A stretch of 64,000 nt of DNA, from contig JBBRRH010000001.1 of NCBI GenBank assembly GCA_038201105.1, positions 8,864 to 72,863 on the forward strand, read 5' to 3'. The translations under genes and the position numbers were made by a program. Below are positions 50,052 to 61,027 of the stretch, piece by piece. The stretch comes from Nitrososphaera sp. (GTDB lineage: Archaea > Thermoproteota > Nitrososphaeria > Nitrososphaerales > Nitrososphaeraceae). The stretch's first letter is position 1. Each line of letters begins with the position of its first letter. A model generated the notes under the pieces. It did not search any database. It was given only the letters and a program-made list of their open reading frames with translations, and had not been told where the DNA came from.

Positions 50052-50125
50052 AGCCTTGGCCGGGATTTGGACCCGGGACCTTTGCCTTACCAAGGCAACG
50101 CTCTACCAGGCTGAGCTACCAAGGC
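50052..50125 (-). tRNA. tRNA-Thr(GGT)
   Basis: Acceptor GCCTTGG/CCAAGGC, anticodon arm TTGCC-TT-GGT-AA-GGCAA, T arm CCGGG-TCCAAAT-CCCGG. Confidence 0.95.
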
Positions 50126-50148: not shown

Positions 50149-50154
50149 TTTATA
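50149..50154 (-). promoter_or_regulatory. TATA box for tRNA-Thr, located inside the element
   Basis: TATAAA on the minus strand, 24-29 nt upstream of tRNA nt 1. Confidence 0.6.
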
Positions 50155-50186
50155 TTTGTTCTTACCCATTTACAAAGCTAACGAGA

Positions 50187-51671: not shown

Positions 51672-51909
51672 TATTCGTGGCTAGCTATTCACAGTAGGAA
51701 CAAAACATAAGATATGTTCCTTGTGCGGTACAAGATGCCGTAATTTACATATTAATGCCTATTTTCCTGTAAAATGCAATTTCACAATTAATTTTTATAG
51801 CATAATATTGATTAATTTAACCTCTACCATATTATTTTTTAGTAAGATAACCCTCTTAAGCTAAGAAATTAATGTATAGGACGGGATACAAGAAAATAAT
51901 CCTAGTCAT

Positions 51910-53361: not shown

Positions 53362-53631
53362 TATGATTACTCTCTGATAACTACTGCTATCACCAAGTAT
53401 CTGGATGCAATACCTGTATCTGAAAGTGAGATTGATGGTATATTTTATAGTGTTTGGACATATTATGAAAGATGTGATATAGAACAGTGCCACACAACAA
53501 GAAGGACAGAAACAGGAAGAACAGAAAGAGGGAGAGAAACCGGCGGAGAAATTAGATAAGAAAAACAGATTAGTTGCAACTGCTAGTAGAACTAGAATGA
53601 AGCGTTATAATTTTATCACCATAGAAGAATC
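53362..53631 (+). pseudogene. Second primase-helicase remnant (frameshifted)
   Basis: LVATASRTRMKRYNFITIEES parallels LVEEASRTIMGWYNFVTIEET of the 52519 ORF; an upstream frame reads IPVSESEIDGIFYSVWTYY (PriCT-like). Confidence 0.6.
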
Positions 53632-53940
53632 TGTTAACTGCTCGACTTTCTTCTGGAGTTGGTTGCTAGGGTCAATAGTAAGATTGGGAATTGCTTTTTG
53701 ATATTCAGTTAAAAGTTGGTCCTCCTGTCTTAGATAGCTGGGGTCATTTGCTTTCAATTTTCTACCTTCAAGAAGCCACCTCCTTTCTGTTATTAACCCA
53801 GCGTCGACGCACTGGTTACTGAACCATTTTCTGAATCCATGACAAACTTTTACATACAGTCGGCTTCAAGTAAACTTTCCTGTACTTTAGTCCTGCTTAA
53901 TTTAATTCAGTCACGCTTAACTTACTCATAGTTGGTTGAG
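53605..53940 (-). pseudogene. Inverted C-terminal fragment of a second tyrosine integrase
   Basis: Frame 53865 to 53605 reads VKVCHGFRKWFSNQCVDAGLITERRWLLEGRKLKANDPSYLRQEDQLLTEYQKAIPNLTID, versus HGFRKFHSSQLVNSNINTEKRWLLAGQALPKNDDAY...EYCKAIPLLTID in the intact integrase; disrupted MSKL..*AGL upstream. Confidence 0.88.
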
Positions 53941-56533: not shown

Positions 56534-56670
56534 CGGATATTTCCACTTATGACCCTCCTACTTTAGGAGTGAAAAAGGACTCACTTGGGTCTGAGAATAA
56601 CAATGATAGGTTATACCATTACTATCGAACAATATTCTCAGACCCAGCTCACACAACCTTGGTGAAATAA
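56530..56670 (+). CDS. Small hypothetical protein (46 aa)
   Basis: MTDISTYDPPTLGVKKDSLGSENNNDRLYHYYRTIFSDPAHTTLVK; ATGA overlap. Confidence 0.45.
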   Translation: MTDISTYDPPTLGVKKDSLGSENNNDRLYHYYRTIFSDPAHTTLVK

Positions 56671-58178: not shown

Positions 58179-58458
58179 TATACCAATAACAAGAAGGGAA
58201 GATATAACTTTTAATTGTGACTACATTTAAAGTGACCTTACTTAATTGAAGAAGAATTGACTGATATCCTTCCACATTTCCAAGTTTAGGTTTTGGGTTC
58301 TAATTCGATACCTGATATTTTTTTATATTTTCAATCGATACTCAAGATACTGTTCATCCGACTTACTATGAACTCTAGACCCTTCATTTCCTTTTCTATT
58401 TTAAAAAATTATAAATATGGTTTTTGGAATTTGGAAGCTCCCTTACAAACTCTTTCAT

Positions 58459-58597
58459 AACTGGGAGGGTCTGGTTTCCCTCAGAACTCAGACCTTTCCA
58501 GTTTTATCTTAAACATTTCTGACACCAATATTACTAACTCCCAACAGCATTTTCTTACTGGAGGTCTGTATCGAGTCCAATTGAATGGACCTCCAGT
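58459..58597. repeat. Hairpin cluster A (58459-58503, 58557-58597)
   Basis: AACTGGGAGGGTCTG/CAGACCTTTCCAGTT (15 bp including G-T pairs); ACTGGAGGTC/GACCTCCAGT (10 bp perfect). Confidence 0.8.
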
Positions 58598-58605
58598 TAT
58601 TCCAT

Positions 58606-58725
58606 TTATCCAGATAATGAGTCTTTGTCTCTATAACCGAATCCACAACTAGGACATTTTTTTCCCGTTTCCAGTTTCTCCAATTCGTCTCCACATTCAG
58701 GACATTGTTCAACTTCTTTGGTCAT
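58606..58725 (-). CDS. CPxCG zinc-finger microprotein (39 aa)
   Basis: MTKEVEQCPECGDELEKLETGKKCPSCGFGYRDKDSLSG. Confidence 0.75.
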   Translation of the reverse strand: MTKEVEQCPECGDELEKLETGKKCPSCGFGYRDKDSLSG

Positions 58726-58816
58726 TGAATTGAATAAAGCCTTTTCAGAATATAACTTTTTATAATCTGATATGCGTATAAAAGACTCCTAACAGCATTT
58801 TCTTACAGGAGGTCCC

Positions 58817-59191
58817 TTATCTTGGAACAGTTAAGTAGAAATCTGTTCCAGAATTAAAGTTTAAAGTTGTTGAATAACACGATGGTACTCCAGGTATCCC
58901 ATTACCAACATCTGTTAAACATGCTGTTGCTGATTCTCCATTCGTAAAACCGTAGCTTGTGTCGAGGAATCTTGTAAATTCATTCCCTATAAAAGGTGCT
59001 AACCATAATCTCCATAGTTGATACTCCCCATGACTACCGGTTACCGTTACAATTACACTATTACCAAAGGCTCCTATTCCTTGAAAGTGAAAATACACAT
59101 TAGTGGTATATGCGTTTACAAGCGGCATCATTGGAACAACACTTGAAAAAACCCCTAGCAGAATTGCTATTATTAAAATTGATTTTTTCAT
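58817..59191 (-). CDS. Secreted beta-rich protein with a Cys pair
   Basis: Signal peptide MKKSILIIAILLGVFSSVVPMMPLVNA; mature domain with two Cys. Confidence 0.72.
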   Translation of the reverse strand: MKKSILIIAILLGVFSSVVPMMPLVNAYTTNVYFHFQGIGAFGNSVIVTVTGSHGEYQLWRLWLAPFIGNEFTRFLDTSYGFTNGESATACLTDVGNGIPGVPSCYSTTLNFNSGTDFYLTVPR

Positions 59192-59586
59192 TTTATTTTA
59201 TCACATCTGGTTACGCCTGTTAACATAATGTTTAATTGAATTATTGTTCAATTGTATTATGCTATGTGTATCTACCTAGTAAGGATTTGGTATCAGACTT
59301 CAGAAAAATGGTATGGTATAATGTAACTTTCAGTCCATCCCAAAACTTGACCCTCAGCCTCCAAATTAATGATGGATAGACTTACGTTCTTGAAATCCTA
59401 AATTCACTGTTACTTACTGCCTTACCAATAGTTTGAATACAAATGAAATCGAATAAGAATTGCCGAAATAAAGGGAAAAAGAGCACTAGATATCTGGAAA
59501 GCCTTAGGAACTGATGGACTAAGTTATAACATGACTCCCAAAGGAGTTTTAGAATTCTATAGAGAAGAGGTGAGTACCATCTGAAA

Positions 59587-59694
59587 ATGAATTTTGCAGT
59601 TAAAGAGAAACCCAAACCAGAGACATACTATGACCAGTTTGAGAAAAACTGTAACTGTATCATATGTAAAATAACCAAGGGAGCTAAGGCTTGA
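59587..59694 (+). CDS. Cys-rich microprotein (35 aa)
   Basis: MNFAVKEKPKPETYYDQFEKNCNCIICKITKGAKA; TTGA overlap with the next ORF. Confidence 0.45.
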   Translation: MNFAVKEKPKPETYYDQFEKNCNCIICKITKGAKA

Positions 59695-59897
59695 ATACTG
59701 AACAATCTAGATGTATTATCAATCTGTCCAGTTCTATAGACACACTTAATCATGAGTATCATACTGAGAGTGAGATGGTTGCATTTGATAAAATAAAGAG
59801 GGTATTCATTGACCTATGTCAACTCGATTTAACTAACCACGATAATATCGAGATACACGAATTTAAAGGTGAGTTGTTCCAAAAGGTAGCAAATTAA
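59691..59897 (+). CDS. Hypothetical protein (68 aa)
   Basis: Operon packing with both neighbours. Confidence 0.5.
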   Translation: MNTEQSRCIINLSSSIDTLNHEYHTESEMVAFDKIKRVFIDLCQLDLTNHDNIEIHEFKGELFQKVAN

Positions 59898-59898
59898 A

Positions 59899-60276
59899 AT
59901 GTCCAAGTTTGTAGAAATTATAATTTTGGTTGCTATCCTATCACTAATTTTAGTAGGCTTAAAGATTGCTTACGGACAGGATTGGCTTACTGAGCATGGA
60001 AATGACTCCATTACTGGGACTCCATCTATGCAACAAATAATAAAGAACGCTCAGAATATGACTCATAAAAATGTCACTACTGATATTATAAAAGTAGGTG
60101 AAGAGAACTTGAAACTTATTAATAGATTGACAATGGTACTTAACTCATGCACAGAAATAATTACGTCTGAAGACTCAAGTTCAACATGTGAGAAGTTTCA
60201 GAGATTGGAGAATAAATATCTTAAACAACTATTCAATGAAACCAGACCTGAAGTAGAAAAGATTCTCTTAGACTAA
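59899..60276 (+). CDS. Secreted helical protein
   Basis: Signal peptide MSKFVEIIILVAILSLILVGLKIAYG; helical body with a Cys pair. Confidence 0.65.
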   Translation: MSKFVEIIILVAILSLILVGLKIAYGQDWLTEHGNDSITGTPSMQQIIKNAQNMTHKNVTTDIIKVGEENLKLINRLTMVLNSCTEIITSEDSSSTCEKFQRLENKYLKQLFNETRPEVEKILLD

Positions 60277-60475
60277 CCTTATCTATGGACCACACTGATA
60301 TTTTCTAGAGCCAATAGGAACAGCTATATCTCCCTATTTTACTTTATTACTTCCGAAGAAACGAATTGTCTACAAACAGTCACGTGTGAAGGGGAGTAAT
60401 CCCTTTCATTTTCTTACAAGTCCTTTTATTCTATGAAGCTCTTAGTAATTACCTTACTAATGAGAATCAAATCTT

Positions 60476-60748
60476 CTGGAGGGAGTTGCCTTTGACATCA
60501 CCTCCCTCCAGTTTAAATAGAATCATAATTAACTTGGAGACTTACTCATTCGCTGGAGAGACCAGAGGTTTTACAAATTTTCCTCTGGACCTACTCCAGC
60601 TTCTGAAATTTGAAACTAAAATAACAGCAAGATGTATTGAATATTATACCTCTAATGTTTTTATAGTTAGTTGAAAACGTTTATCGTTTAGCAACAAACT
60701 GGAGGAGTCCAAAGGTAGGCTGATAGCTCCTCTTGGATTCTCCAGTTT
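60476..60748. repeat. Hairpin cluster B (60476-60511, 60552-60600, 60696-60748)
   Basis: CTGGAGGGAG/CTCCCTCCAG; GCTGGAG/CTCCAGC plus CCAGAGG/CCTCTGG; AAACTGGAG/CTCCAGTTT plus GTCCAA/TTGGAT. Confidence 0.82.
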
Positions 60749-60787
60749 TCAATTATCTCATTCTTTGTTACCATTTAAATATACACA

Positions 60788-60802: not shown

Positions 60803-60894
60803 GATATCAAGAACCGATGAGGGTTTCATTAAGGTATCTATGCATTTTGTAACATTTAATTACCAAGAAATTCATCAATCTCGCTGGTATTTTT

Positions 60895-61010
60895 GCGGGG
60901 GTTGTAGAGCCTGGCCAAATAATTAACGTTTGGAGACGCGGGACTTAAGATCTTACTCAGGAGGGATCCCGTCCTTCAGGGGTTCGTGGGTTCAAATCCC
61001 ACCCCCCGCA
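60895..61010 (+). tRNA. tRNA-Leu(TAA) with two introns (60921-60935 in the D arm; 60950-60965 at 37/38)
   Basis: Acceptor GCGGGGG/CCCCCGC; removing AATTAACGTTTGGAG restores D stem GTA/TAC; anticodon stem CGGGA/TCCCG; T arm GTGGG-TTCAAAT-CCCAC. Confidence 0.85.
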
Positions 61011-61027
61011 CCTTAAGCTCGTATTAG

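Follow-up and report, generated by a model that had tools for sequence, protein, structure and literature searches.

A 64,000-nt stretch of a Nitrososphaera sp. genome (GenBank assembly GCA_038201105.1, contig JBBRRH010000001.1, positions 8,864–72,863 of the forward strand; hereafter the window) holds one integrated mobile element of 10.7 kb, inserted at a tRNA-Thr gene, that carries five GC-rich hairpins, H1 to H5. The hairpins belong to an apparently undescribed family of units of about 100 bases, met only in mobile elements that integrate at tRNA genes in ammonia-oxidising archaea of soil and sediment. Each hairpin forms the 3′ portion of a module of about 100 nt, with a TATA-like box ~40–55 nt upstream, an unstructured leader, the hairpin, and a T-rich tail. 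These modules are read here, tentatively and from sequence comparison, as small-RNA transcription units exchanged among elements.

H1 (58459–58503), H2 (58557–58597), H3 (60476–60511), H4 (60552–60600), and H5 (60696–60748) stand where an earlier note on this DNA had placed five stems. Four have the foot CTGGAG/CTCCAG and H1 has the variant foot CTGGGAG/TTTCCAG. The pattern CTGGAG-N8-38-CTCCAG has four matches in the 64 kb, where shuffles predict 0.04, and all four fall between 58558 and 60745. Folded as single strands, H1–H5 reach −18.7 to −26.9 kcal/mol; relative to dinucleotide shuffles, their z-scores lie between −3.6 and −6.0. The earlier note held the inner stems to be unrelated. Not all of them are: H1, H2, and H3 have arms like CTGG(G)AGG(G)TCTG in common, and H4 and H5 share the inner sequence TCCARAGG/CCTCTKGGA. 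The two clusters bracket a 1.9-kb block of divergent genes, as described before, and the right attachment (att) core begins 39 nt after H5 (40 bp in the note). Neighboring hairpins are separated by 53 nt (H1–H2), 40 nt (H3–H4), and 95 nt (H4–H5), and no credible open reading frame (ORF) lies inside these gaps. The 3′ flanks read CCAG-TTTTATC (H1), -TTATTCC (H2), -TTTAAAT (H3), -CTTCTGA (H4), and -TTTTCAA (H5). H5 has an A run (AAA) before it and a T run (TTTT) after it.

The units are listed in Table 1. A sixth copy, at 58805–58821, is truncated and retains only the 5′ arm of an H2-type hairpin. This arm ends a 49-nt direct repeat, D1 (58518–58566 and 58766–58814, 78% identical), and from 58821 on the 3′ half is replaced by the end of a 124-aa gene. 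Contigs from other metagenome runs (X2, X8, and others; X1 is the source sample) were aligned to the window, and in run X8 the second D1 copy runs on into a complete hairpin, ...GAGTACAATTGATGTTGACCTCCAGTTTTC. A small hairpin at 60386–60409 has GTGTGAAGGGG in common with a unit of contig L110 (unit 3, see below) and may be a decayed unit. Elsewhere in the element, between two ORFs (56586–56646), two 13-bp arms, TGGGTCTGAGAAT...ATTCTCAGACCCA, form a perfect inverted repeat around a 35-nt spacer; the repeat has GGGTCTG/CTCAGACC in common with the inner stem of H1.

The modules recur as blocks in other samples. Box, leader, and H1 (58393–58504) are found in X2, X3, X4, and X8 with unlike flanks and the canonical CTGGAG foot. 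Variants of H2 in X2 and X4 retain the 10-bp foot and the H2 apex motif TCGAGTCCA. Box, leader, and H3 (60418/60424–60514, ~95 nt) are kept in X2 and X8 with both flanks different, the 10-bp stem intact, and 4–7 changes in the leader. Box, leader, and H4 (60512–60586/60609) recur in X1 (on a second contig), X2, X4, X6, X8, and X10, and across those runs this block follows at least three different upstream hairpins. Homology to other samples begins at the box (60512, 60418/60424, 58393) and ends 1–10 nt past the hairpin (60514, 58504, 60609). A hairpin 87% identical to H5 heads contig L116, in front of a copy of the window's gene module 59323–60279. Contig depth in X1 at 60524–60559 is 66–74 compared with ~15 for the element, and at least three contigs there carry the H4 leader; the promoter-like box and leader of H4 therefore exist in several copies in the source community.

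A second, independent locus has the same architecture. Contig L110 was chosen solely for an 85%-identical homolog of the 125-aa protein encoded between the window's clusters, and it has four CTGG-footed hairpins inside 1 kb of non-coding DNA. Its units 2 and 3 have an identical 23-nt box, AGAAAAATATAAATTAAATTTAC, and related leaders ending in TCTTTCAYA right at the foot. H1 in the window has the same layout, TTATAAATA followed by leader CTCCCTTACAAACTCTTTCATA. Unit 4 of L110 combines a leader homologous to that of H1 with an H2-like apex, and the leader CCCTTAC..ACTC.. is common to H1, L110 unit 4, and the X8 copy, the hairpins of which differ. L028 and L053 likewise have conserved box and leader (ATTTTATAATTTAATG.GCATTGAAATATAAC...) and different hairpins.

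The wider family was sought in 85 loci around related integrases (33–62% identical). None of these loci holds the exact CTGGAG...CTCCAG pattern. A search for GC-rich stems with a T-rich tail found a wider foot, CTG(G/A)(T/A)GGG...CCC(A/T)(C/T)CAG, often two to four in a row, with feet such as ACTGGTGGGCC..GGCCCATCAGT and AATCTGATGGGA..TCCCATCAGATT. A census of stems with CTGR..YCAG feet counted 31 copies (~20 non-redundant). Every one lies in the 275.5 kb downstream of integrase genes; the 208 kb upstream of integrase genes and the 53 kb of the window that is host DNA had none. The note's expectation that the hairpins form a family linked to elements, rather than being scattered, thus held. 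A strict census of ~249 kb of DNA counted as host-side placed 0 of 24 hairpins in the family and gave a single foot match, between a tRNA and an integrase gene. An unbiased census found a hairpin density 2.4 times higher on the element side, where every one of the commonest foot words is contained in ACTGGTGGG/CTGATGG. Elements with integrases no more than 35–45% identical still have this foot in common, and the rest has diverged.

Other searches for the family were negative or at chance level. An nhmmer profile of four whole units recovered its own members only, and blastn of the two non-coding regions against all loci gave nothing significant. The right-end word TTCTTTGTTACCATTTAAA had 23 chance matches in genome contigs (22 bacterial and one in a metagenome-assembled genome of a methanogen) and none in Nitrososphaerota. 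Viral contigs scanned with the D1 motif, H2 foot, H1 leader, and CTGGTGGGCC foot gave no matches, or chance matches in unrelated or high-GC phage contigs. The foot GCTGGTGG (L053 4086–4093 and other family feet) matches the Escherichia coli Chi site letter for letter; this link was dropped as coincidence, archaea being without RecBCD. A sub-family retains the apex motif GTTG.TTCTTGTTCAT (L086 3172–3242, L084 10384–10453, L056 10276–10341, L022 13492–13542, and L018 70–137), and its carriers have very different integrases. This loop conservation hints at a candidate binding site. In L005, DNA of ~35% G+C and archaeal-like character passes at ~6800 into high-G+C actinobacterial-like genes, probably a chimeric assembly. 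L005 beyond ~6800 was left out of all counts.

The census and the recurring blocks also bear on a second explanation, that the hairpins are selfish palindromic repeats, similar to repetitive extragenic palindromes (REPs) or miniature inverted-repeat transposable elements, that spread among elements and have no function for them. The family is multi-copy, with the H4 leader on at least three contigs of its own sample and 4–5 times deeper there than the element; the same ~100-nt blocks occur in many contexts; and decayed or truncated copies are present (58805–58821, 60386–60409). REPs are described (PMC3733652) as GC-rich intergenic palindromes of 20–40 bp that frequently occur in clusters and are believed to influence termination and the stability of mRNA. 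The hairpins here resemble REPs and their composites, the bacterial interspersed mosaic elements (GTAG- or CGTC-tagged and mobilized by REP-associated tyrosine transposases, RAYTs), in being GC-rich intergenic palindromes with a constant foot, at 35–50 nt. However, REPs populate chromosomes in high copy together with a RAYT gene, whereas these hairpins are on the element side only, are absent from ~250 kb of host-side DNA, and have another foot. Pfam scans of the element ORFs found no transposase or RAYT-like gene, the module edges have no terminal inverted repeats or target duplications, and stem pairing and boxes are conserved while the flanks drift. A purely selfish repeat is therefore considered unlikely.

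Several signs favor one strand. A TATA-like word lies at −75 to −31 on the T-tail strand in 18 of 34 units; on the mirrored side 6 of 34 units have one, as do 7.4% of 45-nt windows drawn at random. The number of T residues in the 10 nt after the stem is at least as high on the + strand as on the − strand in all nine core hairpins, seven of which fold better on +. At foot positions 4–8 on the T-tail strand, 33 units have 17 G-U-type and 5 A-C-type pairs, a small sample of units selected for pairing. The foot of the H4 variant in X2 and X4 is CTATAG/CTACAG, with one compensatory change from G-C to T-A. Two to three foot pairs per alignment (A4, A5) are changed on both sides, again in small samples of pairing-selected units. 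In the predicted transcripts, the leader stays single-stranded and precedes the folded hairpin. The strand bias of TATA-like boxes, T tails, and G-U pairs points to RNA, and of the readings offered in the earlier note that of repeated RNA structures is the one the evidence favors.

The same signs would not be expected of folded single-stranded DNA or cruciform sites for a protein, whether attC-like, HUH-type ends, or replication or transfer signals. Such sites would account for a conserved foot with a variable center, for linkage to elements that have just one gene in common, a tyrosine integrase, and for breaks in homology close to or within hairpins (58821, 60514). Weak binding of stem-looped att sites by an archaeal XerA is reported in a review of archaeal tyrosine recombinases (PMC8371274). 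Integron attC sites are similarly imperfect palindromes with a conserved base and a variable center, on elements with a tyrosine recombinase. The attC-like form of the idea, put forward in the note, fails on several points: RYYYAAC/GTTRRRY boxes are lacking, and in the 3′ flanks of H1–H5 GTT is never followed by three purines; no ORF lies between consecutive sites, and the 1.9-kb block is four divergent genes rather than one-orientation cassettes; the integrase is not of the IntI type and falls below every integron-integrase model cut-off (best NCBIfam match recomb_XerA_Arch, 48 bits against a cut-off of 220); and the hairpin units have promoter-like boxes and T tails.

HUH-type ends, the note's other DNA reading, fare no better, as Pfam scans found no Y1/HUH transposase domain in 20 element ORFs. 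The subterminal hairpins of IS200/IS605 elements and their gene-less derivatives likewise act in one strand, but here there is no TnpA or TnpB gene, left and right ends do not match, and several hairpins stand in a row. A TTAC word is found 5–22 nt 5′ of many of these hairpins at a varying distance; TTAC is also the cleavage word of IS608, and this is a lead only. Further against a DNA site, the foot is unlike the att core and is not found near the left att site, and the hairpins are missing from four relatives with the same integrase type. A role as DNA sites is accordingly the most doubtful of the explanations weighed here.

If the modules are small-RNA units, the + strand would read, in order, a box resembling the archaeal transcription factor B recognition element and TATA box, an unstructured leader, a GC-rich hairpin of 35–50 nt, and a T-rich stop. 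In archaea the TATA box usually lies ~26 nt before the transcription start. On this spacing, transcription would start ~20–30 nt past the box, leaving a leader of ~10–30 nt, and the product would be an RNA of ~60–90 nt in which a stable stem and a U tail follow a free 5′ leader. The foot would be the constant part, serving as a protein handle or as a processing or termination signal, with leader and apex variable. That the foot is constant at 35–45% integrase identity while leaders and apexes differ suggests recognition of its sequence and not of shape alone. The units, single or in tandem arrays, occupy non-coding stretches and gene-module borders, and blocks of ~100 nt would be traded among co-resident elements. 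The hairpins, their family, its confinement to the element side of the integrase gene, the module edges, and the strand asymmetries are seen in the sequences themselves; that the units are transcribed, where transcription starts, that the foot is recognized, and that the RNA acts in trans are what we infer.

In working principle, the closest match is to small RNAs that consist of a seed plus a terminator hairpin, such as bacterial Hfq-type RNAs and the antisense RNAs of plasmids and phages. These similarly have their own promoter (here a promoter-like box), a short unstructured 5′ part, one strong GC-rich hairpin, and a U-rich end, and are carried on mobile elements. The units differ from them in their archaeal host, in a foot sequence conserved across very different units, in their tandem arrays, and in belonging to no Rfam family. 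RNA anti-CRISPRs, or solitary CRISPR-repeat units, on viruses and plasmids consist of a promoter, a short hairpin RNA, and a terminator, and copy one fixed CRISPR repeat. They likewise occupy non-coding mobile-element DNA near small accessory genes, sometimes in tandem; in the family described here, by contrast, length and apex vary and only 6–8 bp of foot are constant. Box C/D and H/ACA RNAs, bulge-helix-bulge splice motifs, a tRNA minihelix, and a Shine-Dalgarno or anti-Shine-Dalgarno decoy were considered and dropped. With Rfam 15, only tRNAs reach the threshold, and the hairpins give chance-level matches to miRNA precursors (E = 0.85–4); the note's statement that no standard feature class explains the hairpins is fair in that no Rfam family matches. 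One extension, speculative and improbable, is an RNA system of handle plus programmable part, in which a host or element protein would bind the foot and U tail, leader and apex would set the target, and the units would be traded like cassettes. If true, it could serve, for example, in inter-element interference, immunity, or counter-defense.

Several observations weigh against small-RNA units. The element is in none of the RNA runs, including the metatranscriptomes that contain host genes, and runs X33–X36 (type unrecorded) show the empty att site. The T tails are short, with 2–5 T. A terminator scan (short GC-rich stem, loop of 3–8 nt, 5 or more T among the 8 nt that follow) flagged none of H1–H5 and only the small hairpin at 60386–60409. 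H3 and H4 fold ~2 kcal/mol better on the − strand, and the H4 variant is fully paired on that strand only. TATA-like words are common because the spacers are AT-rich, and the strand given by G-U pairs conflicts with that given by the T tail in ~4 of 16 informative cases. Complementary targets of the five leaders within the window did not exceed those of shuffled leaders. For most metagenome loci it is an assumption that DNA downstream of the integrase gene is the element interior; this holds in the window. The four relatives without such hairpins also count here, as they show the units to be optional.

The main competitor is that the hairpins are only terminators or insulators in cis, ending transcripts of their neighbors, including read-in from tRNA promoter regions at att sites. 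The spacers would then hold the promoters of the next genes, and the shared foot would reflect descent by local duplication and gene conversion, not recognition. Every hairpin is found at the border of a gene or module: the stop of the 39-aa gene is 9 nt from H2, an L018 hairpin follows an ORF stop by 4 nt, another hairpin with T5 lies behind the 138-aa gene of L110, and H5, between an A run and a T run, is 39 nt from the right att site. H1/H2/H3 and H4/H5 resemble local duplicates. The earlier note further proposed that on the excised circle a tRNA-type promoter would read into the right-hand hairpin cluster. This is geometrically right, as a TATA-like box at ~50151–50160 faces leftward and would read across the joined att site (attP) into H5. 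The units can do without such a promoter, since on the opposite (+) strand each carries a promoter-like box of its own, and with its A and T runs H5 looks more like a stop for tRNA-side read-in than its product.

Termination alone, however, does not explain consecutive units with no gene between them (41–97 nt apart here, four within 1 kb in L110), has no need of a box at a set distance and a conserved leader, and does not predict a foot kept at 35–45% integrase identity while all else diverged. In archaea, moreover, an oligo-T tract is generally enough for termination without a hairpin. A purely terminating role is thus possible and on the unlikely side. Under the small-RNA reading, the position of the units at module borders and of H5 near the right att site suggests that they probably also stop read-through, in both directions.

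Coordinates of the element are given in Table 1. Contigs from six other metagenome runs show the empty site, with tRNA-Thr joined straight to 60788, and this fixes the right boundary. The integrase has 503 relatives in the protein collection, and the closest are likewise beside tRNA-Thr(GGT), with the tRNA directly upstream of the integrase gene. As a single-sequence query it had no match in the genome and viral contig collections. A short att site with a tRNA target is as described for thaumarchaeal "cryptic integrated elements" (PMC6563490). A 3′-end remnant of a second integrase gene lies at 53605–53845 (−), with 57–68% blastn identity to integrase genes of ~35 related loci, which suggests that the element is composite or decayed. 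A 43-nt non-coding stretch beyond the 3′ end of the integrase gene (51703–51745) is 95% identical in L004 and L006, while the surrounding DNA, including the integrase gene, is only ~67–75% identical; the stretch may be a conserved site or small RNA. Beyond the right att site, a probable intron-bearing tRNA gene (60894–61013, +; acceptor GCGGGGG/CCCCCGC, T arm GTGGGTTCAAATCCCAC) was missed by ARAGORN and by the Rfam gathering threshold and has a weak tRNA-clan match (E = 3.5e-4). Many contigs in other metagenomes match only 60966/60978–61003/61014 and then diverge, as expected of an att hot spot for other elements.

The block between the clusters encodes two leftward and two rightward genes. 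No Pfam, PHROG, or PADLOC family of note was found for the proteins, and a match to a Csx1 model (E = 0.001) was weak and judged to be chance. Module 59323–60279 is ~97% identical in other contexts (L116; runs X2–X5).

Table 1. Features of the element and its hairpin units (window coordinates)
Feature	Position	Strand	Basis or remark
tRNA-Thr(GGT), integration target	50052–50125	−	ARAGORN and Rfam; first 5 nt inside left att core
Left att core AAGGCACATTTGCAA	50121–50135	.	Exact 15-nt direct repeat of right core
Tyrosine integrase gene, 443 aa	50187–51518	+	Pfam Phage_integrase, E = 2.9e-7
Unit 1: A run and TATA-like TTATAAATA (58409–58417), leader CTCCCTTACAAACTCTTTCATA (58438–58459), H1, tail TTTT	58393–58505	+	
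Unit 2: leader (D1 copy A, 58518–58556) and H2	58518–58600	+	Ends 9 nt from stop of convergent 39-aa gene
Gene for 39-aa zinc-ribbon protein	58606–58725	−	ORF; zinc-ribbon Pfam matches below threshold
Truncated sixth unit: D1 copy B and 5′ arm ACAGGAGGTC (58805–58814)	58766–58821	+	Direct repeat; comparison with X8
Gene for 124-aa protein, N-terminal signal-like segment	58817–59191	−	No family match
Genes for 68-aa and 125-aa (N-terminal hydrophobic helix) proteins	59691–60276	+	Within module 59323–60279
Small hairpin GTGAAGGGGAGTAATCCCTTTCAT then TTTCTTAC (T tail)	60386–60409	+	Terminator-like scan; by eye against L110
Unit 3: TATA-like CTTTTATTC (60423–60431), leader, H3, tail TTT	60418–60514	+	
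Unit 4: TATA-like TTTAAATAG (60512–60520), leader with TTAC, H4	60512–60609	+	
Unit 5: TATA-like TTTTATAG (60659–60666), leader, H5	60657–60752	+	
Right att core AAGGCACATTTGCAA	60788–60802	.	Direct repeat; empty-site contigs

The family looks to be of a known kind, small structured RNA genes or palindromic units on mobile elements, of which none is known to have been described in this phylum; searches of the literature on small RNAs and tyrosine recombinases of archaea and on the mobile elements of thaumarchaea found no account of such units. Beyond the integrase, the mobile elements of ammonia-oxidising archaea encode next to nothing of known function and are mostly "cryptic" (PMC6563490). 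A recurrent, element-restricted, non-coding unit with a conserved foot and a promoter-like box of its own, passed between elements as a block, would be their first shared functional module besides the integrase, and would offer a concrete entry point to small-RNA biology in the phylum.

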